A stretch of 64,000 bases of DNA from Candidatus Doudnabacteria bacterium (lineage in GTDB: Bacteria > Patescibacteriota > Doudnabacteria > UBA920 > O2-02-FULL-48-8): the NCBI GenBank assembly GCA_039931165.1, contig JBDTSL010000001.1:2214-66213 (forward strand), read 5' to 3'. The notes under the pieces are model-generated. The model searched no databases, was not told the DNA's origin, and saw only the letters and a program-made list of their open reading frames with translations. The translations under genes were made by a program, and so were the position numbers. Below are positions 307 through 13,710 of this stretch, in pieces. Positions within the stretch are counted from its first letter, which is position 1, and the number at the start of each line of letters is the position of its first letter.

Positions 307-1218
307 TTAACTTTCCATGGCCAGCTTCGCCGCGCTAATTTCCGACAATTCTCTGGTAATTCCCGCCTGCCTGGCCTGGTTATAACTTAATGACAGGTCT
401 TCCAGCAGGTCGCCTGCGGCTTCATTGGCATTGCGCATGGCCACCATTCGGGCGGAGTGTTCTGAAGCCGACGCCTCGACCAATGCCTGATATACCGTAA
501 ACTCGATGGTTTTGGTAATTAAGCTCTCTAGGACTTGGTCAGCATCTGGTTCAAACAGAAACTCTGCGCGCTGAGCGCTCAGCGCTGAGCGCTCATTGGC
601 AAAGGGTAACAATTGAAGCATATTCGGCTTTTGAACCAATGTCGAAACAAAATCCGAATATATCAAAAGCACCTTTTCATATTTTCCGCCAGAGGCGGAC
701 CCGCCTACAGCGGGATTAACTCCTAAATATTCTTGCATGGCTATTTGTGAGATTGGCCGGGCATCCAGAGAGTTAACTTTATCTTTAGCAGAAAATGAAG
801 CGATGATGTTTAAGTTCAATCGGCGAACGGCATCCGCGGCTTTTTTCCCGACCGTTATGAAGTCAAATTTTTCGCTACCTTCCTCCTTCATCAGGTTAAC
901 GGTTTTATTTATGACATTAGTATTGAACGCGCCGGCTAATCCGCGGTCGGACGAGATCACAATCGCCAAGATCCGCTTAGGCGCCGCTTGCGGTTTAGAA
1001 AGCGGGCGATTCAGCAGCGGATGCTTGCCGGTGTCGGTAAATGCCGAGATATTGCTCAAAAGTTTGGAAGACAAAATTGCGTAAGGTCTGGATGCGGTGG
1101 CCAATATTTGAGCTTTGCGCATTTTTGCAGCCGAAACCAGCTCCATGGCCTTAGTGATCTGACCGATGTTAGTGATCGATTTTATACGCCGCTTGATTTC
1201 TCTGCTGTTCGATGCCAT
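307..1218 (-). CDS. atpG: F1 ATP synthase gamma subunit
   Basis: 303 aa beginning [37 protein letters not shown], a gamma-subunit N-terminal helix. It sits between alpha and beta in canonical operon order. Confidence 0.9.
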
Positions 1219-2744
1219 TAATTATACCCTTTCTTAAAATCCTCAATTGCTTTCTTGAGTTCAGCTTCTGTTTTTTCTTTCAACTCTTTTTCCGTCGCGA
1301 TTGCTTTCAGCAAATCTTTTTTCTGTATATCCAAAAACTTATGGAAATTATTTTCCCAGTCTTTGACCTTTTCAACAGCCACATCGTCCAGATAACCATT
1401 AATGGCGGCATACAATATTACCACTTGATGCTCCACAGCCATGGGCTCAAACTGATCTTGCTTGAGTATTTCCGTGATCCTAAGCCCCAGGTCAATGCGG
1501 GCTTTGGTCTGAGCATCCAGATCGGAAGCCAGCTGAGTAAAGGCGGCCAGAGCGCGGAACTGAGCCAGATCCAGACGCAATTTTCCGGCAACTTTTTTCA
1601 TAGCTTTTATCTGCGCCGCGGAGCCGACGCGGGAAACGGAAATACCGACGTTTAAAGCAGGCCTGATGCCCTGATAAAACAAATCGCTTTCCAGGAAGAT
1701 CTGTCCGTCGGTAATGGAAATGACATTGGTCGGAATGTAGGCGGACACGTCCCCGGCCTGCGTTTCAATTATGGGCAATGCGGTCAGAGAACCTGCGCCT
1801 TTTTCTTTATTCAATTTGGCCGCACGCTCGAGAAGCCGGGAATGCAGATAAAACACATCGCCGGGGTATGCTTCGCGTCCCGGTGGCCTTCTTAAGAGCA
1901 AAGAAATTTCACGATAAGAAACCGCGTGCCTGGACAGATCATCGTAAACTATCAAAGCGTGTTTGCCCTGGTCCATAAAATACTCGCCCATGGCGCATCC
2001 GGCAAATGGGGCGATATACGAGAGCGCTGCCGGGTCGGAGGCGCCCGCCACTACAATAATGGTGTTTTTCATGGCATCGCGCTGTTCCAGTTCCGCCACG
2101 ATGCGCGCGATCTTTGATTCCTTCTGTCCGATAGCGACATAGATGCTGATCACACCTTTGTCTTTTTGGTTGATGATAGTATCGATGGCGATTGCCGTTT
2201 TACCGGTTTGCCGGTCCCCAATGATCAGTTCGCGCTGGCCGCGGCCGATCGGGATCATGGCGTCAATTGCTTTAATGCCGGTTTGCAAAGGCTCATTCAC
2301 GGATTGTCTTTCAATAACTCCGGGAGCGATCTTTTCCACCGGGTAATACACCAAGGTGGATTTCCCGCCAGAGGCGGGTCCGCCTTCGGCGGATATCGGT
2401 CCTTTGTTATCCAGAGGCTCACCTAAAGGATTTACCACTCGTCCGATCAACCCCACCCCCACCGGAACCGATAAAATTTTGCCTGTTGCCGTGACCTTAT
2501 CTCCTTGCTTGATGTTCGTATCGTCACCCAGTAAAATGACGCCGATCGAATCCTGGTCCAAATTCAGGGCAACGCCGATCACTCCGCCTGCAAATTCCAA
2601 CATTTCCGAAGCTTTGACACTGGAAAGCCCGGCAACGCGGGCAATGCCGTCGCCTACGCTTAAGACAATCCCGACTGTTTCAAGTTTGGCGTTGGCCTGA
2701 AAATTATCGATCCGATTTTTGAGTTGTGTAAGTATGTCGGGCAT
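1218..2744 (-). CDS. atpA: F1 ATP synthase alpha subunit
   Basis: 508 aa with a Walker A GDRQTGKT, plus [10 protein letters not shown] and ALIVYDDLS motifs. Confidence 0.95.
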
Positions 2745-2752
2745 ATACGTTA

Positions 2753-3151
2753 TTAATTACTTAATTCCTTCTTTAATTGTTCCAAATTATTCTTAACCGA
2801 GGCATCGAGAATCTGATCGTCCATTCTTATTATCACTCCGCCGATCAATTGCTCATCGATTTGTTTTTTTACCTCGACTTTTCCGTTGACCAGCCTGTTA
2901 AGCTGATCCACGATTTCCTGTTCATTCTGTTTGTTCAAAGGATGCGCTGAAGTTATCTGAGCTTGTTTTATGCCCTTTCTCGCCAGGTCCAGTTTGTGAA
3001 ATTCTGAGCTTATCTCGTCAAATAATCGTAAATCGTTATTTTCCGCAAGGACTTTGACAAAATTATCCAAAACCGTGCTTTCATCCTGGGGTCTTGCGCT
3101 TTCAATCGCTTCTAACAGCGCCTGGGCATATTGTTTGGCGGCATACTTCAT
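2753..3151 (-). CDS. atpH: ATP synthase delta (OSCP) subunit, short form
   Basis: 132 aa with an OSCP-like C-terminus [18 protein letters not shown]. Its position between atpF and atpA fits the operon. Confidence 0.75.
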
Positions 3152-3642
3152 TTGATTTGCCTGACACTTTCGTTGATTAATTCATGGTCTGTCTTGGAAT
3201 CAAGCTTGCCTCGCAAAATCTTTTCGGACGTTGCCACTACCAGCGTGGCGATTTCCTGTTTTATTTCTTTCAGCATCCGGGTTTTTTCGTTTTCAACGCT
3301 TGATTTTGCCTGTTCCATAACTTTACGCGCCTGGTTCTGAGCCTCGACAATAGTCTCCTGTTTGATCTTGGTCGCGGTGTCCGCGGTCGTTCGCAAGATC
3401 TTGTCAGCCTCGGCGCGGACTTTTTTCATCTCCTGGGTTTTCCATGCATCAAATTTTTTCTTTTCTTCGTCCAGACGGTCGGCATTTTTCAAGCCTTCTT
3501 CAATCCTCTCGGTCCGCTTGGTCAAAGTCGCGCCCAAAGGCTTAACCACCCATTTCCAGAAAATAAACAAAATAATGCTGAAGTTGATCAGCTGTGCCAA
3601 AAACAATTTCCAATTGATTCCAAGTGTTCCTAAAACTTCCAT
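3148..3642 (-). CDS. atpF: ATP synthase Fo subunit b
   Basis: 164 aa with a single N-terminal TM helix and a long charged coiled coil, in operon position. Confidence 0.8.
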   Translation of the reverse strand: MEVLGTLGINWKLFLAQLINFSIILFIFWKWVVKPLGATLTKRTERIEEGLKNADRLDEEKKKFDAWKTQEMKKVRAEADKILRTTADTATKIKQETIVEAQNQARKVMEQAKSSVENEKTRMLKEIKQEIATLVVATSEKILRGKLDSKTDHELINESVRQIK

Positions 3643-3657
3643 AAAATTTAGTTAATT

Positions 3658-3718
3658 AGCGTACAGCGTATAGCGTAAAGCGTATAGATCTAAACCCTAT
3701 ACGCTAAACCCTAAACGC
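3658..3718 (+). repeat. Family-2 GCGTATAG-hairpin element, copy 1 (abuts atpE stop)
   Basis: AGCGTACAGCGTATAGCGTAAAGCGTATAG-ATCTAAACC-CTATACGC-TAAACCCTAAACGC. About 90 percent identical to the reverse complement of 17460-17520. Confidence 0.7.
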
Positions 3719-3719
3719 T

Positions 3720-3956
<237 letters not shown>

Positions 3957-4051
3957 TTAATCGACTGGTTTGTTATATTTAAAGTCGTTCGTAAGAGTTA
4001 AAAGTTCAGAAACAGAAACCTATCGACTGTAAGTCTCTGTAGCCTAAACTA

Positions 4052-4888
4052 TTACCCGCCCGACTGAACGACGTCAGTCGTTCGGGCGGGATGGCTGGTT
4101 TCGTGAACCGGTGCCGTGGCCATTGTCAGATAAACCAGGGTTAGCATGGAGAACACCAAGGCCTGGATCAATCCCACAATCAACTCCAAAAAAATAAACG
4201 GCAGCGGCAAAAAATACGCGAACAATCCGGCCATAATGGTCAGCAGTACTTCGCCTGCGAAAATATTCCCGAACAGCCGGAACGACAAAGAAACCAGCTT
4301 TGCAACCTCCGAAATAATCTCCAGAAAACCCACGCCAAACTCGATGATCGCTGTCATGATGCTTACTGGGCCTTTGCCGAAAGACTTAAACAAATCTCCT
4401 AGTTTGATAAATTTGTTGGCGTACCGAAAAAATCCAATTACGGCCACTCCCATAATGTGCGAAACCAACACAGCGAACACTGCCATGGCCAAAGTCAGAT
4501 TAAGGTCGCTGTTGGCTGAGCGCAGCAGCGGCACCAGTTCGGTTTTACCCTCAACCATCAGATACCTGCCGATTGAGCCTGTGCCCGGTAGCAGGCCCAG
4601 ATAGTTTGAAAATAAAATAAACAGAAACATTCCGCCGATTACCGGCAGGACTTGCAAAGATTTTTGCCTGTTATGGGTCACCTGGTCGATGTAGCCTAGC
4701 ATAAACTCCAAGATACTTTCGGCAAAGTTCTGGAAGCCTTTTGGGATCAGATCCGTCTTTTTGCGCAAAATAAAGCCAACGATCAGGAATACTACAACCG
4801 CAATAGATGAGTTAATGTAAGCATTCGTCACCGGAAATTGACCAATATGTAATATTGACTCTGCGACTAGTGGAGGTATAGCGGTCAT
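4052..4888 (-). CDS. atpB: ATP synthase Fo subunit a
   Basis: 278 aa polytopic membrane protein with a conserved Arg-containing helix (LSFRLFGNIFAGE) and the ELIVGLIQALVFSMLT motif. The last ~15 codons run through a GC-rich nested palindrome at 4056-4092. Confidence 0.85.
   Translation of the reverse strand: MTAIPPLVAESILHIGQFPVTNAYINSSIAVVVFLIVGFILRKKTDLIPKGFQNFAESILEFMLGYIDQVTHNRQKSLQVLPVIGGMFLFILFSNYLGLLPGTGSIGRYLMVEGKTELVPLLRSANSDLNLTLAMAVFAVLVSHIMGVAVIGFFRYANKFIKLGDLFKSFGKGPVSIMTAIIEFGVGFLEIISEVAKLVSLSFRLFGNIFAGEVLLTIMAGLFAYFLPLPFIFLELIVGLIQALVFSMLTLVYLTMATAPVHETSHPARTTDVVQSGG
4056..4092. other. GC-rich nested palindrome (cccgcccg...gaacgac-gtca-gtcgttc-gggcggg) inside the last codons of atpB
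   Basis: Two nested stems of 7-8 bp read directly from the sequence. Confidence 0.5.
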
Positions 4889-5154
4889 TTGATGTACTTT
4901 TTTAATCTATAAGTTAACCACGCCGTGGTACTCGCGATTGCCAAGACTATACCGATTAAAGTAACCCAGGGCAGCGTGTGATGCATGTTGTTGTCGATCC
5001 ATTTGCCCAAAAGCGCCAAAACCACGAGTGGAATCGCGATTATATAACCCAGCTCAAAGCTTAAGCTGATGAGAGCTGCTTTATCGAGTTTTTTGGGTTT
5101 TTGTAGAGGTGATTCCATATTGAAGCGCGTAAATTCTAACAAAAAAAGCCTCAT
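4885..5154 (-). CDS. Small two-TM membrane protein, possible ATP synthase protein I/AtpZ-like
   Basis: 89 aa hydrophobic protein immediately upstream of atpB, overlapping its start. Assignment is by position and size only. Confidence 0.4.
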   Translation of the reverse strand: MRLFLLEFTRFNMESPLQKPKKLDKAALISLSFELGYIIAIPLVVLALLGKWIDNNMHHTLPWVTLIGIVLAIASTTAWLTYRLKKYIK

Positions 5155-5200: not shown

Positions 5201-6877
5201 TCATTGAATTAGATCCGAAAACACCACCAGCCGTTGAGGATAACTGTTGGTGATTTTATTAAAATCGCCGATGCAGGTAATAAGAATAAGACGGTTACCT
5301 CCGTTTGAAACAAAAATATCCGAAGCATCCGCTTTTGCTTCGTAGAAACGGCGCTCTCTGACCTCAAATACAAAAGAAACTCCCCTGTCGTCTACCACCG
5401 ACATCGTTTGGCCTACAGTTACATTTTTCAGATTATCAAAAATCGCGGTCTGTCCGCCCGACCAAATCCCGCTATGGCCGTCTATAACGGCATTGCCCGG
5501 CTGGCCAGGTCGAGGGCCCAAATTAAACCATCCGACATGGGCGCGGCCCGCGGCTGTATCCATGGCTCCGGCCGCTGTCAAACCGACTTGCTCGATCGCG
5601 GCATTGACCCTGATGCTGGGAATTTTCAAAAAAGCCGGCAGTCCGCTGGGAATTGGTTTCGGCACAGGGATAGGTTTGGGGGTGGTTGTATTTGGAAGCG
5701 TCGGAGTTGGAATAGGTACCGGAGTGGGAACCGGAGCGATTGGGACCGGCACAATCGCTACGGGGTTACTGAGCGAAGGACTGGGCAGAACTGAGAGAGG
5801 TTGACCGCTAAAATAACTGTTAACCAGAAAGTACGCGAGCAGGCAGATCAGGGATCCGACAACAATAATCACCATCAGTGTTTTTTGTTTTCTTAACCCT
5901 GCCCACAGCGCAAGCAAGCCGGATATTGCCGCAAACGAGATTACAATTGCCCAATTCGTGGGATTGCTTGAACCGGGATCGGTTGCCACACCGGCCGTAA
6001 TATCAAAAAGATTTGGCGGAGTCGGCAACAGATCCGTGCTCGGAAAATCCGGAGCCCGGACCATGCCCGGCACAGCCACTATAACATTTATGGAAACTTT
6101 ATCCATCGCGGCCAGACCATTGGCGATCCCTTCGGCAGTAGCGATACTCTTCGCGTTTGCGGTAAGTTTAACTGAGCAGGTGTATATCCAAGACTCGCCG
6201 GCGTTAAGCAGTTTGTCGCTGTTGGCATCACCCGTTGGTCCTATTACGGACTGGCATTGATCGTCAGAAACGCTGATTCTGCCAATCGGGGCAATTCCCG
6301 GGTTCGAAACCTTATAAGTATACGTTACAAGTCCGCCGCCGAAGGGCAGGACAAACTGATCGGGTTGCGCTACAAGATGAATCAAAGGAGGAATTATGGG
6401 TTCGCTGACCACCACCGTGGCACTGGAGATGGCTGTCGCTGTCAGACCGACAGAATTGCCTGTGGCGGTGGCTGTATTGGTTGTGGTCCGGCCGATCTGA
6501 GTCGTACACCGGTATAACCAAATTTCGTTTGTATCGAGAATCAGATTAAGATTGGGGTCGCCGGAAACAAAACTTACCGAAGCGCATCTGTCGTCAGCAA
6601 CCTTTAAATTATGCACGCCGACTGTTCCGGCATTGGCAACCTTAAAAGTATAAGTGACCAATCCTGGACCTGCGGGCAAAGTCAGCGGGTTTGGCACTTC
6701 CGTAAGGGAAATCAGCGGAGGAATAGCGATAATACTGGCTTGATCCACAGTAGGGTTTGTTTGTATTTGCGCATTTGCGTACATGGCGCCGCACAACACG
6801 ACGAACAAAATCGGCAGGACCAAAAATGCGAACTTGGCAAAAATTCTTTTAGCACGCATGTTCTCGATATGTTTCAT
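5201..6877 (-). CDS. Fusion protein: signal peptide + two DUF11-like repeat domains + sorting-signal-like segment (FPSTD, TM, RKQK) + Pro-rich linker + C-terminal sortase domain
   Basis: The N-terminal 330 aa parallel the C-terminal halves of the adhesins at 7959-11169, with LTLPAGPGLVTYTFKV...VADDRC and LVTYTYKVSNPG repeats. The C-terminal ~190 aa carry the sortase catalytic triad: His in AVIDGH, Cys in LILITC, Arg in QRLVVF. They align with the neighbouring sortase at 6909-7859. Confidence 0.7.
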   Translation of the reverse strand: MKHIENMRAKRIFAKFAFLVLPILFVVLCGAMYANAQIQTNPTVDQASIIAIPPLISLTEVPNPLTLPAGPGLVTYTFKVANAGTVGVHNLKVADDRCASVSFVSGDPNLNLILDTNEIWLYRCTTQIGRTTTNTATATGNSVGLTATAISSATVVVSEPIIPPLIHLVAQPDQFVLPFGGGLVTYTYKVSNPGIAPIGRISVSDDQCQSVIGPTGDANSDKLLNAGESWIYTCSVKLTANAKSIATAEGIANGLAAMDKVSINVIVAVPGMVRAPDFPSTDLLPTPPNLFDITAGVATDPGSSNPTNWAIVISFAAISGLLALWAGLRKQKTLMVIIVVGSLICLLAYFLVNSYFSGQPLSVLPSPSLSNPVAIVPVPIAPVPTPVPIPTPTLPNTTTPKPIPVPKPIPSGLPAFLKIPSIRVNAAIEQVGLTAAGAMDTAAGRAHVGWFNLGPRPGQPGNAVIDGHSGIWSGGQTAIFDNLKNVTVGQTMSVVDDRGVSFVFEVRERRFYEAKADASDIFVSNGGNRLILITCIGDFNKITNSYPQRLVVFSDLIQ

Positions 6878-6908: not shown

Positions 6909-7859
6909 TTACAAGACTATATAAGAGTTAAGTATTTTTCTCGTGGCCGGGCCGACATTGCCTAAAACATCAAGACCGTTATCCTTCTGAAATTCTCTGA
7001 CCGCGCTCTGCGTTTCGGTTTGGAAAGAATCGGAGAGCGGCGAATTGAGAGGAATATATCCCAAACATTTAAGAAGACTCTGAAGCAATACCACTTGGGA
7101 GCCGCTACTGCCGATTTTCAATGGACCGGTGAAAGATTCAGCCAGACCACAAGGCCCAGTTTCGTTGGCCGCGGCAGGAAGAGAATATAGCCCGGCCGGT
7201 ATTGGAGGTCCTTCCGCTACTGCCGGCGCCTCGGTCCGGACTCCCGCCACTTCCCCATCCACAAGATCCGCGAATACCACAAACCGTTTAGAGTAGGTTT
7301 TTTTCGATTTATCCCAGACCCCGGCGCAAGTAACAAGATTAAGATGCGCGCCGCTGTCAGACGAATAAACTTCCGGGACCTTGGCGTCAAAATCATAAAA
7401 TCTGGTCTCCCGCACCGCAAAAGGCACGGATTCTCCGTTTTCCGTCAGGATCTGCACCATATCTCCTTTGACCAGCTTATTTAGATTATAAAATACGGCC
7501 GCCTTCCCGTTGGTCCAATCCAAATGGCCTGCGATGACCGAACTGCCCTCCTGACCCGGTTTGGGTCCTTGATCATACCACCCGACATCCTCGGGGCGCT
7601 TAGGCACGTCCATTGCGCCGCCCGCTGTTTCACCCACATTCTCTATGGCGGCGTCGACATTTAAACTCGGGATCACTAAACGCAACGGCTGTCCGTAATC
7701 CGCGGGTTGGTCTTTTATGCCCGCCAGCACAGGAGCGCTGGCTATCTGTTTAGCCGGAGTTTTATCATAATCAAGAGCATACCGTAAAAACAGCAGGAGG
7801 CATATCGCGAATCCGGCCACTAGGATCACGGAGAATTGTTTGCTAAAAAATGTTTTCAT
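6909..7859 (-). CDS. Sortase (transpeptidase) with C-terminal peptidoglycan-binding domain
   Basis: N-terminal TM anchor, His in SVIAGH, Cys in LNLVTC, Arg in KRFVVF. The C-terminal ~60 aa (LQSLLKCLGY...FQTETQSAVREFQKDNGLDVLGNVGPATRKIL) look like a PG_binding_1-type domain. Confidence 0.75.
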   Translation of the reverse strand: MKTFFSKQFSVILVAGFAICLLLFLRYALDYDKTPAKQIASAPVLAGIKDQPADYGQPLRLVIPSLNVDAAIENVGETAGGAMDVPKRPEDVGWYDQGPKPGQEGSSVIAGHLDWTNGKAAVFYNLNKLVKGDMVQILTENGESVPFAVRETRFYDFDAKVPEVYSSDSGAHLNLVTCAGVWDKSKKTYSKRFVVFADLVDGEVAGVRTEAPAVAEGPPIPAGLYSLPAAANETGPCGLAESFTGPLKIGSSGSQVVLLQSLLKCLGYIPLNSPLSDSFQTETQSAVREFQKDNGLDVLGNVGPATRKILNSYIVL

Positions 7860-7958: not shown

Positions 7959-9548
7959 CTATTTTCCCGCACGAATTCGCTTTCGGTCAAATTTTCTTCG
8001 GTAAATATAAAGCAGGAACAAAGCTCCGATTATTCCGACCGGAAAAATAATTTTCCATGGGGTGCTATGATCCGCGCTCAGCCCTGTACTTGGAAACGCA
8101 GGAACTTCTGTGGCCGGCAACGCAGGCGGCGCAACCACCACAGTAGCGAACGCAAGATCAGTGGCAGTTATGCCATTGGCCGTGCCGGAGGCTGTGGCAG
8201 TGTTCAGGGTCGTGGCAGTGAGATTTGAGATACAGGTAAAGCTCCAGCTCTCGGTCGGTTCGAGCAGATTGTTTTGATTGATATCTCCCGGGTGTCCTAC
8301 AACTCTACCGGGTAAGCCTGTGCATTTGTTATCAGTAACAGTTACATCACTTAAAGCCACGGTACCCGGGTTGGTGACGGTATATCTGTAAGTAACCGCT
8401 CCGCCGCCTGCCGGCAGTGTGAAAGGATAAGGGATCTTTACCACATGGATCAAAGGAGGAACGACGGCAGCGCCGACGACAACTGTTGCGGTGGCTGTGT
8501 CGGTAGAGCTTAGTCCCAGAGAGAATCCTGTGGCTGTGACGGTATTTGTATGAGTGGCGGCTAGGGTCGTGGCGCAGTTGTATATCCAGACTTCAGTCAG
8601 ATCCAGCGCGCCGTTGGCATTGGTATCGCCGGAGACAAAGTTTACCGGGCCACAGCTGTCATCGGTCACTCTGACAGTGGACATCGGGACAGTTCCGATG
8701 TTACGGACAGAGTAAGTGTAGGTCACGAGCCCGGGACCGCTGGGCAATGATAATGGGCTGGGTACTTTTAGGACATCGATCAGCGGTGGGACCGGGACCG
8801 GGCCTCCGGGGCCGGCGGGCGGTGTGCCTGATGAACATGAGTCAGAAATAGCATTAGTCTGCAACGTTACTTCACCAACCAAAGCTAAGGCGCGGCCAAT
8901 CAAACTTGCGCCGGTGGCTAATGTAATATCGCCAGAGTTTGTGATAATGGTTCCCTTGATCTGTGAGCCGGTACCGATGTTCATAGCTATCGGAACCTGC
9001 CAATATACATCGCAGGCGCTAGCTCCATTGGTTACCGCAACAGTAGTACCTCCGCTATCAGTGATACTGGACGTACTGCTGAAAATGTAGACGCCGGCGC
9101 CATCAAGAGTAATGGTGCCGCCGGTCATAACTCCCGCGGCTACATCATAAACTCCTGGGGTGATCGTTACATTCCCTGACAAAGTTTGGGCTGGTCCAGG
9201 CCCTTGAGCCGCAAGTTGCCCATACGCAGTAAGCGCATCGGCTTCGGGAGTATTCACTGTAGGAGCAACATCATATCCTGCCGCGATTCCCGGACCCGCT
9301 GTATCAGCGAATCCTACGTTCGAGCTATCAGACCCGACACGTCCCGAAAGTACCGATAAGCCTGTATTTGTCACCCCCGCTTTACCAAGAGCCGAATAGG
9401 CAGCAGACGCTCCGAGGGTTGGCGCTACGCCTGTAACGGCATAAACAGTAGTGCCTTTCATTACAAACATTCCAGCCACCAAGGTCACTAAAAGAAATCC
9501 AACAAATAACGTTTTATTGTATTTTTTTGTTGTTCGTTTTTTTATCAC
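7959..9548 (-). CDS. Sortase-substrate surface protein A: signal peptide + ice-binding-like (DUF3494-type) beta-helix + two DUF11 repeats + C-terminal sorting signal (LPATE/FPSTG, TM, RRKFDRKRIRAGK)
   Basis: The N-terminal region has Gly/Thr/Ser-rich beta-solenoid repeats. Its C-terminal 240 aa are near-identical to the paralog at 9568-11169. It ends in a hydrophobic helix plus a basic tail. Confidence 0.65.
   Translation of the reverse strand: MIKKRTTKKYNKTLFVGFLLVTLVAGMFVMKGTTVYAVTGVAPTLGASAAYSALGKAGVTNTGLSVLSGRVGSDSSNVGFADTAGPGIAAGYDVAPTVNTPEADALTAYGQLAAQGPGPAQTLSGNVTITPGVYDVAAGVMTGGTITLDGAGVYIFSSTSSITDSGGTTVAVTNGASACDVYWQVPIAMNIGTGSQIKGTIITNSGDITLATGASLIGRALALVGEVTLQTNAISDSCSSGTPPAGPGGPVPVPPLIDVLKVPSPLSLPSGPGLVTYTYSVRNIGTVPMSTVRVTDDSCGPVNFVSGDTNANGALDLTEVWIYNCATTLAATHTNTVTATGFSLGLSSTDTATATVVVGAAVVPPLIHVVKIPYPFTLPAGGGAVTYRYTVTNPGTVALSDVTVTDNKCTGLPGRVVGHPGDINQNNLLEPTESWSFTCISNLTATTLNTATASGTANGITATDLAFATVVVAPPALPATEVPAFPSTGLSADHSTPWKIIFPVGIIGALFLLYIYRRKFDRKRIRAGK
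8136..8832. repeat. About 700-bp near-identical segment shared with 9725-10421 (the DUF11-repeat halves of adhesins A and B), offset 1589 bp
   Basis: Long identical runs were read directly, for example ccaccacagtagcgaacgcaagatcagtggcagttatgccattggccgtgccggaggctgtggcagtg. There is one short divergent patch near 8715-8760 versus 10318-10360. Confidence 0.85.
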
Positions 9549-9567: not shown

Positions 9568-11169
9568 TTAAAACGCTCGTTTTTTTCGGGCCACGTAGAA
9601 CAGCAATAAGGCCGCGATCATTCCCGCCGGAAGGATGACATTCCACAAAGTATTTCTTCCCGCTGGCGCATATCCGGTAGCTGCCAAACCGATGCCTGGA
9701 GGCGGAGTTGGTGTTGCCGGCGGCGCTACCACCACAGTAGCGAACGCAAGATCAGTGGCAGTTATGCCATTGGCCGTGCCGGAGGCTGTGGCAGTGTTCA
9801 GGGTCGTGGCAGTGAGATTTGAGATACAGGTAAAGCTCCAGCTCTCGGTCGGTTCGAGCAGATTGTTTTGATTGATATCTCCCGGGTGTCCTACAACTCT
9901 ACCGGGTAAGCCTGTGCATTTGTTATCAGTAACAGTTACATCACTTAAAGCCACGGTACCCGGGTTGGTGACGGTATATCTGTAAGTAACCGCTCCGCCG
10001 CCTGCCGGCAGTGTGAAAGGATAAGGGATCTTTACCACATGGATCAAAGGAGGAACGACGGCAGCGCCGACGACAACTGTTGCGGTGGCTGTGTCGGTAG
10101 AGCTTAGTCCCAGAGAGAATCCTGTGGCTGTGACGGTATTTGTATGAGTGGCGGCTAGGGTCGTGGCGCAGTTGTATATCCAGACTTCAGTCAGATCCAG
10201 CGCGCCGTTGGCATTGGTATCGCCGGAGACAAAGTTTACCGGGCCACAGCTGTCATCGGTCACTCTGACAGTGGACATCGGGACAGTTCCGATGTTACGG
10301 ACAGAGTAAGTGTAGGTCACAGATCCGGGACCACCAGGCAAAGACAAAGGGCTGGGTACTTTTAGGACATCGATCAGCGGTGGGACCGGGACCGGGCCGC
10401 CGGGGCCGGCGGGCGGTGTGCCTGCACATGTCACCGGTGTGGCTATATTGGTCGTATTCCCCGTTGTAACTACTCCGCCAAATGACAAGGCCCTTCCTGT
10501 CCAGTTTACGTTAGCACCAGTTGTAATGCCCGAATCATCAATAACTGTTCCTAACATAGTCGTATTGTCTGCGAGTGATGTTGCAGAAGTGGCAGTCCAA
10601 AAAACGTCACACGGAGATGCCCCGGCCACTTGCACAATCGCCCCTGCCGACGAGGTTAGGGCGCCAAAAATCCTGAATATATATGTTCCAGCTCCATTAA
10701 GCGTAATTGTGCCTGTTATCTGCGCAGCACTACCGGCTGTAGTGCAATAAATTCCGGGCAGATAAACTCCAATACCACCAGGGTGAAGGGCTTCAGTGCC
10801 CAGATTAACCGCTCCGGCTGGGAAAGTGTAATCGCAAGGCAATTGAGCATTCAAATTAACAAGTGCGCTGCCCTGATCTGTGCCTGCGGTAGAATATGGA
10901 GCACCCGAGCCGTAGCGCAGCTGTGTGCCTAGCGGGTGAACTGCCGGTCCTGTAGTAAATCCGATATCGCCGTTAACCGTGGTTCCGGCGAAGGTATTAA
11001 TGAAAGAACTGGCAAGAATGGCATATGATGTGGCCGCTCCAAGGTTCGGAGTTGTAGCCGCACGAGCCATAAGGCCATTCATCATAGAAATCCCGGCCAT
11101 AAGCAGAATAACCAACAGAGATATAACAATCCGGCCTTTGTATTTTTTTGCGTTTCGTTTTTTTATCAT
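9568..11169 (-). CDS. Sortase-substrate surface protein B: ice-binding-like (DUF3494) N-domain + two DUF11 repeats + LAATG sorting signal
   Basis: After the signal peptide the protein reads LGAATSYAILASSFINTFAGTTVNGDIGFTTGPAV, matching the DUF3494 family opening. The C-terminus is GIGLAATGYAPAGRNTLWNVILPAGMIAALLLFYVARKKRAF. LAXTG is the class-E sortase motif. Confidence 0.7.
   Translation of the reverse strand: MIKKRNAKKYKGRIVISLLVILLMAGISMMNGLMARAATTPNLGAATSYAILASSFINTFAGTTVNGDIGFTTGPAVHPLGTQLRYGSGAPYSTAGTDQGSALVNLNAQLPCDYTFPAGAVNLGTEALHPGGIGVYLPGIYCTTAGSAAQITGTITLNGAGTYIFRIFGALTSSAGAIVQVAGASPCDVFWTATSATSLADNTTMLGTVIDDSGITTGANVNWTGRALSFGGVVTTGNTTNIATPVTCAGTPPAGPGGPVPVPPLIDVLKVPSPLSLPGGPGSVTYTYSVRNIGTVPMSTVRVTDDSCGPVNFVSGDTNANGALDLTEVWIYNCATTLAATHTNTVTATGFSLGLSSTDTATATVVVGAAVVPPLIHVVKIPYPFTLPAGGGAVTYRYTVTNPGTVALSDVTVTDNKCTGLPGRVVGHPGDINQNNLLEPTESWSFTCISNLTATTLNTATASGTANGITATDLAFATVVVAPPATPTPPPGIGLAATGYAPAGRNTLWNVILPAGMIAALLLFYVARKKRAF
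9725..10421. repeat. Second copy of the ~700-bp intragenic repeat
   Basis: See the feature at 8136-8832. Confidence 0.85.
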
Positions 11170-11347
11170 AATCTTCCTGACTTTCGTTAGGCGGGTTAAT
11201 TATTTAGTTTATTTGTATTTCGAACCATGCGGTCTGTGAATCTAGCTTTTTTAGTGTCTTTTTTATGAAAATAGCTTCTGTACATATTATGATATGCTTT
11301 ATGGTAAATGTCAAAACTAACGCTGTGGATAACAGCTTATACCAAAA

Positions 11348-11374
11348 CCACCTGCTGATGCAGGTGGTTTTTTA
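11348..11374. terminator. Intrinsic terminator-like hairpin (ccacctgc-tgat-gcaggtgg) followed by T6
   Basis: Perfect 8-bp stem with a T-run on the plus strand and an A/T-rich run on the other side. Lies between adhesin genes B and C. Confidence 0.5.
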
Positions 11375-11502: not shown

Positions 11503-12645
11503 TTAAAGCGCTTTTTTTCTTCGGGCAATGTAGAGCAGGAACAAAACCGCGACTATGCCAATTGGCAGGATCACATTCCAGGGAGTCGCTTTTTGCGCCG
11601 GATTAAATCCTGTAGCTGCCAGCCCGAGGCCGGGTGGCGGAGTAACTGCTACTGGCACAGGAGTGACCACATTTGCCGTATTTACGATGGTGCAGCCGGT
11701 CGTAAGGCCTGCTACAACCGTGATCGAGCCGCAAGTGGATGAATTTTGAGTCCAGCCGGACGGCACTACTTCCGTGGCTGAATAAACTCCTGGGGTAAGA
11801 CCGCTTTGGGTATGTGATCCGGTTCCTGCCGAGGTTGAAATGCTGAAACTAGAGAAGCCGGCGCCGGTGGTGTTAAAGTTGAATGTGCCATTGCCTCCGA
11901 CCGCTGTTTTATTTACGGTAATTGATCCTGTGGCCGGAAGTCCAGAAGCGCATACCGGTGTGGTAATCGTATTGAGAGAGGTGGTGACGGTTCCGCCAAA
12001 TGCCAGGACTCTCCCTGTCCAAGTAGCGAGGTTGCCGAGTGTAATGCCCGAAGCATCGATGTCCCGGCCTACGAAGGCAGAGTTTGCTCCAAGCGTTGTG
12101 GCAGCGCCCGGGGTCCACCAGACATCACAAGAGGTCGCGCCATTGGAGGCCGTGACCACGGAATTGGCCACAGTGGTAAGCGCTCCGGTCATCCGGAAAA
12201 TGTATACGCCGGCGCCATTCAGAGTAATTCCGCCGGTTCCTACGTCAGCCGCGCCCAGAACGCAATATACTCCCGGTGTGTAAACGCCGACCGGACCGTG
12301 TGTGGTATCGGCAGCGAGGTCAATTGCCCCGGGTGCGAATGTAAACGTACACGGCTGGCTGTTCAGGGCAGACAAAGCCGCTCCCTGATCTATGCCGGCC
12401 TGGGCATAAGTAGCATCAGCCGTATGGGTGACGCCAGTGACTGTGGGCGCTACAGCAGGCCCGGTGGTATATCCCAGATCGCCGTTAATGACGGTCCCGA
12501 CCAAAGTGTTGGTATAGGAACCGGAAAGAACGGTAAAGCTGTTGGCCGTCCCAAGGCCCGGTGACGTTGCCGCGTTGGCTGTGACCCCAACCATAAGAAC
12601 AGCGGCCAATAAAATGATAGTGAACAGGATATTAATCTTTTTCAT
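11503..12645 (-). CDS. Sortase-substrate surface protein C: ice-binding-like (DUF3494) domain + Thr/Gly-rich Ig-like segment + LAATG sorting signal
   Basis: Reads LGTANSFTVLSGSYTNTLVGTVINGDLGYTTGPAV after the signal peptide. C-terminus is PGLGLAATGFNPAQKATPWNVILPIGIVAVLFLLYIARRKKAL. Confidence 0.7.
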   Translation of the reverse strand: MKKINILFTIILLAAVLMVGVTANAATSPGLGTANSFTVLSGSYTNTLVGTVINGDLGYTTGPAVAPTVTGVTHTADATYAQAGIDQGAALSALNSQPCTFTFAPGAIDLAADTTHGPVGVYTPGVYCVLGAADVGTGGITLNGAGVYIFRMTGALTTVANSVVTASNGATSCDVWWTPGAATTLGANSAFVGRDIDASGITLGNLATWTGRVLAFGGTVTTSLNTITTPVCASGLPATGSITVNKTAVGGNGTFNFNTTGAGFSSFSISTSAGTGSHTQSGLTPGVYSATEVVPSGWTQNSSTCGSITVVAGLTTGCTIVNTANVVTPVPVAVTPPPGLGLAATGFNPAQKATPWNVILPIGIVAVLFLLYIARRKKAL

Positions 12646-13634: not shown

Positions 13635-13710
13635 TGGAGCCGACGGTCGGGCTTGAACCGACAACCTGCGGTTTACGATACCGCTGCTCTACCAGTTGAG
13701 CTACGTCGGC
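13635..13710 (-). tRNA. tRNA-Thr (anticodon CGT), CCA encoded
   Basis: Minus-strand sequence GCCGACG-TA-GCTC-AACTGGTA-GAGC-A-GCGGT-ATCGTAA-ACCGC-AGGTT-GTCGG-TTCAAGC-CCGAC-CGTCGGC-T-CCA. All four stems pair perfectly. Confidence 0.9.

Follow-up and report, generated by a model that had tools for sequence, protein, structure and literature searches.

In the textbook view, a sortase and its substrate are separate proteins that encounter each other in the membrane. In the housekeeping systems (classes A, E and F, with LPXTG or LAXTG substrates) the enzyme has a sortase fold, a His-Cys-Arg triad and an N-terminal membrane anchor, the substrates carry a signal made of a pentapeptide, a hydrophobic segment and a basic tail, and the genes for enzyme and substrate are clustered. 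In the candidate phyla radiation sortases occur widely (PMC6744442); the class F enzymes are without an established physiological role (PMC13251363). Here we describe an open reading frame (ORF), named FUS, in a 64,000-nucleotide stretch of Candidatus Doudnabacteria bacterium DNA (assembly GCA_039931165.1, contig JBDTSL010000001.1, positions 2,214 to 66,213; hereafter the window). FUS shares all of the above features with the housekeeping systems, but differs from them in that the enzyme and a substrate-like module form one polypeptide, the substrate tail joins the enzyme anchor as a transmembrane (TM) hairpin, and Asp takes the place of Gly in the recognition motif. We explain FUS as an in-frame fusion, genuine, old and maintained, between a surface module of adhesin type and a sortase, and on this point our confidence is high; roughly even confidence attaches to the whole explanation given below, which includes decay of the internal signal.

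Two other described systems invite comparison. Gram-positive pilus loci, which use class C sortases, also combine several isopeptide-domain (CnaA/CnaB-like) surface proteins bearing sorting signals with more than one sortase. A sequence profile of FUS weakly reaches class C sortases in the PDB (best match 8t28_A, E 7e-9), a resemblance to be read as a lead and not as a test; unlike in pilus loci, a pilin motif or lid was not identified here. To our knowledge, no pilus sortase is fused to a pilin. Engineered sortase-LPXTG tags likewise place a sortase and its recognition motif on one chain, and these self-cleave (PMC2901362), but they are artificial and soluble and have the order enzyme-motif-cargo, whereas FUS is natural and has the order cargo-motif-(TM hairpin)-enzyme, its cleavage being hypothetical. 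No description of a natural substrate-sortase fusion was found in the searchable open-access literature, which is weak evidence of absence.

FUS corresponds to MEO8065234.1, “class F sortase [Candidatus Doudnabacteria bacterium]”, from a Doudnabacteria metagenome-assembled genome (MAG) in which PGAP annotated it as an intact gene. Its product consists of a signal peptide, two CLIPPER_2/DUF7507 domains, the pentapeptide FPSTD (motif 1), a first TM segment (TM1), the basic sequence RKQK, a second TM segment (TM2), a Pro-rich linker and the sortase domain (Table 1), a layout that, from the two repeats onwards, a first-pass annotation of the DNA had described correctly. The same annotation had recognised two DUF11 repeats; there are indeed two repeats, but they belong to CLIPPER_2/DUF7507 (PF24346; two stretches, 37.6 bits against a Pfam cut-off of 27), and DUF11 scored under its own Pfam cut-off. 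The signal peptide was read from the sequence, with a putative ANA|Q cleavage site and an AlphaFold2 helix at residues 3-35, and hydropathy analysis gave three hydrophobic segments (12-30, 310-328 and 334-352). In the AlphaFold2 model (mean predicted local distance difference test score, pLDDT, of 81.9) two beta-sandwich domains span residues 56-267 with pLDDT above 93, two TM helices lie at 307-328 and 332-356, and residues 276-305 and 358-411 are disordered, both motif regions lying inside these disordered linkers. If the positive-inside rule is applied to the model and the signal peptide is taken into account, both CLIPPER_2 domains would be outside the cell, TM1 would run from outside to inside, RKQK would be cytoplasmic, and TM2 would run back outwards to place the Pro-rich tether and the sortase domain outside.

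The enzyme part was identified as PF04203 (Sortase) at residues 417-556, with 69.1 bits against a Pfam cut-off of 26.6. The catalytic triad is intact, comprising H468 (DGHSG), C535 (LILITC) and R549 (QRLVVF); these columns are invariant in alignments of FUS homologs, in which the sortase signature motifs are conserved too. The barrel (residues 415-556) was modelled with pLDDT above 90, and its top structural matches in Foldseek are class A and class D sortases, the best being Streptococcus pyogenes SrtA (template-modelling score 0.68-0.70), Bacillus anthracis SrtD and Staphylococcus aureus SrtA. A phmmer search with the domain against PDB sequences returned no match. The NCBIfam class F model NF033748 is still the best-scoring class model, but its 94.6 bits do not reach the cut-off of 166; PGAP uses the class F name all the same. 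Sequence, catalytic residues and predicted fold identify FUS as a sortase, class F-like while under the NCBIfam class F threshold, and with its intact triad and confidently predicted fold the enzyme part looks fully competent.

Both halves of FUS have a relative next door. Residues 31-330 align with residues 222-519 of the adjacent adhesin (adhesin 1 in Table 1) at 41.5% identity over 316 amino acids (E 1.8e-58), in a match that extends across the adhesin's sorting signal and TM helix, and residues 407-557 align with residues 51-200 of the stand-alone sortase srt2 at 43% identity (E 7e-39). By sequence comparison these similarities far exceed chance, and the two relationships, already proposed at first pass, are borne out. 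No similarity between FUS and the neighbouring adhesin and sortase genes was detected at the DNA level by blastn, so the paralogy is old and does not stem from a recent duplication.

The fusion is not confined to this genome. P0190 (MEO8637573.1, 834 amino acids, from a Taylorbacteria MAG) and L008 (an 855-amino-acid ORF of JBDSJN010000005.1, from a MAG labelled “Patescibacteria group”) run colinearly with FUS over the whole span from CLIPPER_2 repeat 1 through the sortase domain. FUS residues 26-557 align with P0190 residues 220-715 as one colinear segment (42% identity, E 9e-123) that extends from the relic signal and TM1 across the basic loop and TM2 to the linker and sortase domain, and the alignment with L008 likewise runs through the junction as a single colinear match (43% identity, E 7e-130). 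P0190 was recovered identically by a second assembler, and the L008 locus has the same gene order as that of FUS, namely an adhesin with a sorting signal, a stand-alone sortase and the fusion. The MAGs of origin are labelled as different candidate phyla. Both orthologs share the hairpin and the position of a second pentapeptide (motif 2, see below) with FUS, but unlike FUS they also carry an N-terminal Ice_binding and a C-terminal PG_binding_1 domain. Single-protein scans of genome_contigs and metagenome_contigs with FUS residues 301-558 found no closer relatives (above 50% identity). At the L008 locus, the adhesin upstream of the stand-alone sortase is split into overlapping ORFs (85-828 and 825-1532), probably by a frameshift or an assembly error, and its 3' end overlaps the longest ORF of the sortase.

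The junction in FUS reads ...GGG TTA AGA AAA CAA AAA ACA CTG ATG GTG.... An independent Logan assembly (SRR26386588) matches 2,700 bp of the window, junction included, at 100% identity, and the junctions of P0190 and L008 contain no Met, no out-of-frame stop and no vestigial stop or start. Because the colinear, fused junction is common to all three, the fusion predates the divergence of their lineages, and its presence in two distant relatives points to an old, maintained design and not to a sequencing error. The first-pass annotation had left the choice between a genuine fusion and a recent deletion, frameshift or assembly indel, and had proposed a comparison with related loci; that comparison, with both relatives fused through the junction and the same gene order around L008, decides for the former. 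The identical independent assembly, the absence of DNA similarity to the neighbours and the clean junctions of the orthologs refute a sequencing indel or recent frameshift, and we are highly confident that the fusion is real and ancient, ancestral rather than a recent accident.

The internal sorting signal of FUS is recognisable but degenerate, as had been noted at first pass. Motif 1 has the same first four residues as the FPSTG of adhesin 1, and ends in Asp at P1' instead of the Gly, Ala or Asn of LPXTG-type signals; the GAT codon of this Asp is one transition away from GGT (Gly). A hydrophobic segment (TM1, 307-328) and a basic tail (RKQK) follow as in a functional signal, but the signal is not C-terminal, 226 further residues coming after it, and motif 1 lies 27 amino acids from TM1 compared with 8 in adhesin 1. 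At the position of motif 1, LPSTG is kept in L008, whereas P0190 reads FANND and has lost the motif; the sequences met elsewhere are FPSTG, LPSTG or FPETG. L008 additionally has FPNTD immediately before TM1, and FPxTD may conceivably be a bona fide variant motif. As a separate observation, the PxTD tails of other homologs sit in a different, longer conserved C-terminal domain: CLIPPER/DUF11 proteins of other bacteria (P0004, P0011, P0017, P0018, P0048, P0096, P0099, P0100 and P0102) end in ..ET..P..PPTD..(about 15 aa)..GSLP[LI]LLIVLGIIGFGAVLLTP.R.RR, which is distinct from LPXTG signals.

The stalk has changed as well. A strand with the pattern PLIxVxKxP occurs in each CLIPPER_2 repeat, and its Lys is found in 157 of 161 occurrences among free adhesin homologs, and likewise in fusions that lack TM segments (see below). 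By analogy with the position of K715 in a solved CLIPPER domain (PMC12617251), it would be the isopeptide-forming Lys of CLIPPER-type domains. In FUS it is replaced by Glu in repeat 1 and by Ala in repeat 2; other hairpin fusions have Gln (repeat 1 of P0190) or Ser (P0177 and P0195).

Motif 2, located just upstream of the sortase domain, is LPNTT in FUS and is conserved as a site in all five aligned Patescibacteria hairpin proteins, the other variants being LPSTG, FPMTG, FPSTG and FPEVG. When FUS is aligned with P0190 and L008 alone, LPNTT stands opposite LPSTG and, in L008, LPNAG. The motif of P0190 and L008 lies only 3-9 residues from strand 1 of the sortase domain, which in our judgement is too near to reach the protein's own active site, so that cleavage there would need to be intermolecular. 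A self-anchoring or cis-processing architecture, suggested at first pass, is hypothetical.

To place FUS among its relatives, we surveyed 150 representatives nearest to its sortase domain together with earlier matches. Most are ordinary sortases of about 200 amino acids with one anchor, and about 30 have long N-terminal regions, which are of two kinds. In hairpin fusions a surface module is followed by a pentapeptide, TM1, a basic loop, TM2 and the sortase. Three groups of these were distinguished: (i) FUS, P0190 and L008; (ii) the Patescibacteria proteins P0177, P0195, P0192, L027-L029, L053 and L061; and (iii) a protein of about 958 amino acids with LPNTS from a high-GC (guanine-cytosine) soil lineage, whose exact 958-amino-acid sequence was found on 11 contigs from different samples. 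Among the loci of species-representative genomes, 6 of 80 have a hairpin fusion. A canonical motif before TM1 is kept in L008, P0177, P0195, P0192, L028, L029, L061 and the LPNTS group. In no-TM fusions an Ice_binding, SpaA (SpaA_2) or CLIPPER (CLIPPER_2) module is followed by LPNTG, FPNTG, LPKTG or FPNAG, and the sortase domain begins 6-51 residues later (P0009, P0010, P0012, P0016, P0101, P0120, P0148, P0206, P0210, P0225, P0229, P0242, P0250, P0255, P0264 and P0348). Of the 29 long proteins, 17 have the pattern [LF]P.[TA][GAS] within the 60 amino acids that precede the sortase domain, where composition-preserving shuffles predict 1.07; among 122 ordinary short sortases the pattern is found in 3, and 3.05 are expected. 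A profile scan of JGI metagenomes found 81 of 83 sortase ORFs to be stand-alone and no hairpin fusions, and a profile of the junction and sortase alignment, run against a set of 5.8 billion proteins, retrieved almost only stand-alone sortases.

Several further observations came from the same loci. P0010 stands alone, with no separate sortase or adhesin adjoining it, and in P0192 the segment ahead of the sortase domain is predicted to be disordered. A subfamily that makes up 23 of the 101 sortase ORFs in the Patescibacteria loci (L017, L020, L030, L033, L036, L041, L043, L044, L046, L054, L056, L058, L061, L065 and L084; also P0211) has a TM anchor followed by FGWK[FY]P..KFPx[TV]G....AYSDIRDPGG.PQGLPVRL and a PG_binding_1 domain, and mostly ends in LPx[T][AG], a hydrophobic stretch and a basic tail at the very C-terminus, so from its sequence this sortase looks as if it bears a sorting signal itself. 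A sister group has [FL]PSGQV in that segment before the sortase domain.

In the explanation that we favour, FUS would have originated when a stop codon and spacer were lost and the cytoplasmic basic tail of an adhesin was joined to the cytoplasmic N-terminus of a sortase, so that the substrate's signal helix and the enzyme's anchor became a TM hairpin. Judging from sequence and model, two sortases most likely work on the three adjacent adhesins, whose signals are FPSTG, LAATG and LAATG, and the FUS sortase would be one of the two; these adhesins are the only other sorting-signal proteins in the window, which contains only two sortase domains. The passenger would have decayed as a substrate, having lost its Ice_binding domain, the Gly at the scissile site and the near-invariant Lys in both repeats. 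Because of these changes, and of the loss of the motif in P0190, the module would be cleaved poorly or not at all; on whether FUS is largely uncleaved our judgement is evenly poised. The CLIPPER_2 module might then stay tethered beside the enzyme, conceivably as an accessory, docking or acceptor domain.

Several points weigh against this explanation. The FPST sequence is fully kept in FUS, the difference being confined to the P1' residue, and non-Gly P1' residues are tolerated by some sortases. The canonical motifs in most other hairpin fusions suggest that cleavage is the normal fate of the architecture. The orthology of FUS, P0190 and L008, as read from their sequences, depends on colinearity and synteny, with an identity of only 42-43%. 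Finally, the neighbour-joining tree is crude and without support values. The fusions are scattered in this tree, which fits the view that they arose repeatedly, each time from an adhesin gene followed by a sortase gene in the conserved order.

A strong rival, which we regard as a serious possibility short of even chances, is that FUS is a self-substrate polyprotein. It would be cut at FPST|D, and perhaps at LPNT|T, either intermolecularly by its own sortase or by the neighbouring one, so that a CLIPPER_2 stub is moved to the wall or to another protein and a two-TM or released sortase remains. This agrees with the canonical motifs that most other hairpin fusions have in the corresponding position and that no-TM fusions have directly upstream of the sortase domain, with the motif enrichment in the long proteins, with the predicted flexibility and exposure of both motif regions, with the identity of FPST to the start of the adjacent adhesin's signal, and with the self-cleavage of the engineered fusions mentioned above. 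The details of FUS itself point the other way, as Gly is missing from both motifs (replaced by Asp and Thr), the stalk Lys is gone from both repeats, and motif 1 is farther from TM1 than its counterpart in adhesin 1; in the orthologs, motif 1 is wholly lost in P0190 and motif 2 was judged too close to strand 1 for attack in cis.

A broader form of the same idea can be put forward tentatively, as a possibility well below even: FUS may belong to an undescribed class of sortase polyproteins, present in Patescibacteria and some other bacteria, whose modules are separated by recognition pentapeptides. Intermolecular cutting at these sites by the enzyme would send its own passenger to the wall, and in relatives with both an FPxTG after the anchor and a C-terminal LPxTG-TM-basic signal the sortase might also be released from the membrane and become wall-anchored.

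That FUS is a non-functional relic heading for loss seems improbable. The Ice_binding and PG_binding_1 domains of the orthologs are absent from it, and the motif Gly and stalk Lys residues are lost, as such decay would predict; against this, no stop interrupts the 558 codons, every domain is modelled with pLDDT above 90, the catalytic triad and sortase signature motifs are conserved, and FUS aligns end to end with its orthologs without disruption. The remaining readings turn on the run of six A in the basic loop, one of two homopolymers of at least six in the ORF. With five A, the frame would end as RKQKH-TGA, the stop overlapping the in-frame ATG of M335 (TGATG) just before TM2. This exact geometry (5870-5886, minus strand) could make the fusion switchable, slippage in DNA or transcription toggling between the fused protein and two products, an adhesin-like protein with a complete sorting signal and a stand-alone sortase. 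We think such a switch hardly probable, as six A are short for efficient slippage, the feature is missing from both orthologs and the split adhesin would still end in the FPSTD signal. An origin of FUS from two genes restored at the TGATG was also considered and is ruled out, again by the absence of the feature from both orthologs, for which reason the geometry is probably a coincidence. Least probable of all, and very unlikely, is that an extra A, by a sequencing or assembly artefact or a very recent mutation, fused an adhesin to a sortase at the overlapping ATG, which this geometry would allow but the independent assembly, the old paralogy and the fused junctions of the orthologs contradict. 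In addition, the +1 frame of FUS often contains stops (29 per 558 codons), and the A run is accounted for by Lys codons.

The features of the locus are collected in Table 1. The genes on the minus strand follow the order adhesin 3, adhesin 2, adhesin 1, srt2, FUS, and then the ATP synthase genes, which were recognised by reading translations; the 46-nucleotide gap between the FUS stop codon and this cluster is without a convincing terminator. LAATG, the signal of adhesins 2 and 3, is of the class E type (PMC8225981). A 709-bp stretch over the CLIPPER_2 repeats (8122-8830 and 9716-10424) is 98.2% identical between adhesins 1 and 2, which differ in their Ice_binding heads and sorting signals; from the sequence, this looks like a recent gene conversion or mosaic, with identical stalks on two different sorting signals. 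Between adhesins 3 and 2 lies a perfect 12-bp stem-loop with a T run (11344-11371), terminator-like in both directions, followed by the best promoter-like match (11/12, at 11314-11286), which suggests that adhesin 3 may be transcribed separately from the four genes that run from adhesin 2 to FUS. Overall, the scan for promoters and terminators did not rise above background and was unused as evidence.

Table 1. Features of FUS and of its surroundings, in window coordinates.
Feature	Position	Strand	Remarks
FUS, whole fused ORF	5201..6877	-	558 amino acids, ATG start
Sec-type signal peptide, residues 1-36	6770..6877	-	basic N-region, hydrophobic core, putative cleavage-type site
CLIPPER_2/DUF7507 repeat 1	6398..6724	-	Pfam and AlphaFold2
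CLIPPER_2/DUF7507 repeat 2	6068..6397	-	Pfam and AlphaFold2
PLIxVxKxP strand positions, residues 54-62 and 164-172	6692-6718 and 6362-6388
Motif 1, FPSTD, residues 278-282	6032..6046	-	counterpart of FPSTG in adhesin 1
TM1, residues 307-328	5894..5959	-	former sorting-signal hydrophobic segment; hydropathy and AlphaFold2
Basic cytoplasmic loop RKQKT, residues 329-333	5879..5893	-	former charged tail; contains the run of six A, 5881-5886
TM2, residues 334-356	5810..5878	-	counterpart of the stand-alone sortase N-terminal membrane anchor; hydropathy and AlphaFold2
Pro-rich linker	5645..5809	-	predicted disordered; holds motif 2, LPNTT (5684-5698)
Sortase catalytic domain	5204..5644	-	with H468, C535 and R549
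srt2, stand-alone sortase	6909..7859	-	C-terminal PG_binding_1; 31 nucleotides upstream of FUS
Adhesin 1	7959..9548	-	Ice_binding, 2 x CLIPPER_2, FPSTG-TM-basic tail
Adhesin 2	9568..11169	-	Ice_binding, 2 x CLIPPER_2, LAATG-TM-basic tail
Adhesin 3	11503..12645	-	Ice_binding, SpaA_4, LAATG-TM-basic tail
tRNA-Thr (CGT)	13635-13710	-	just upstream of the adhesin cluster region
F-type ATP synthase cluster	307-5154	-	directly downstream of FUS; AtpI-like small protein, subunits a, b, delta, alpha, gamma

At the level of the locus, the evolutionary question is answered in favour of an ancestral fusion. For S. pyogenes SrtA and M protein, contact between TM segments has been proposed in a molecular-dynamics study (PMC12746448), and a natural fusion that is conserved across candidate phyla and has come about several times would suggest that a substrate's signal helix and an enzyme's anchor can work side by side. 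Fusions of this kind could allow enzyme and substrate to be paired directly by sequence among the class F-like sortases of Patescibacteria, which are poorly understood, and, should the internal motifs be cleaved, they would represent self-sorting or self-cleaving modules of natural origin that protein engineers might use.

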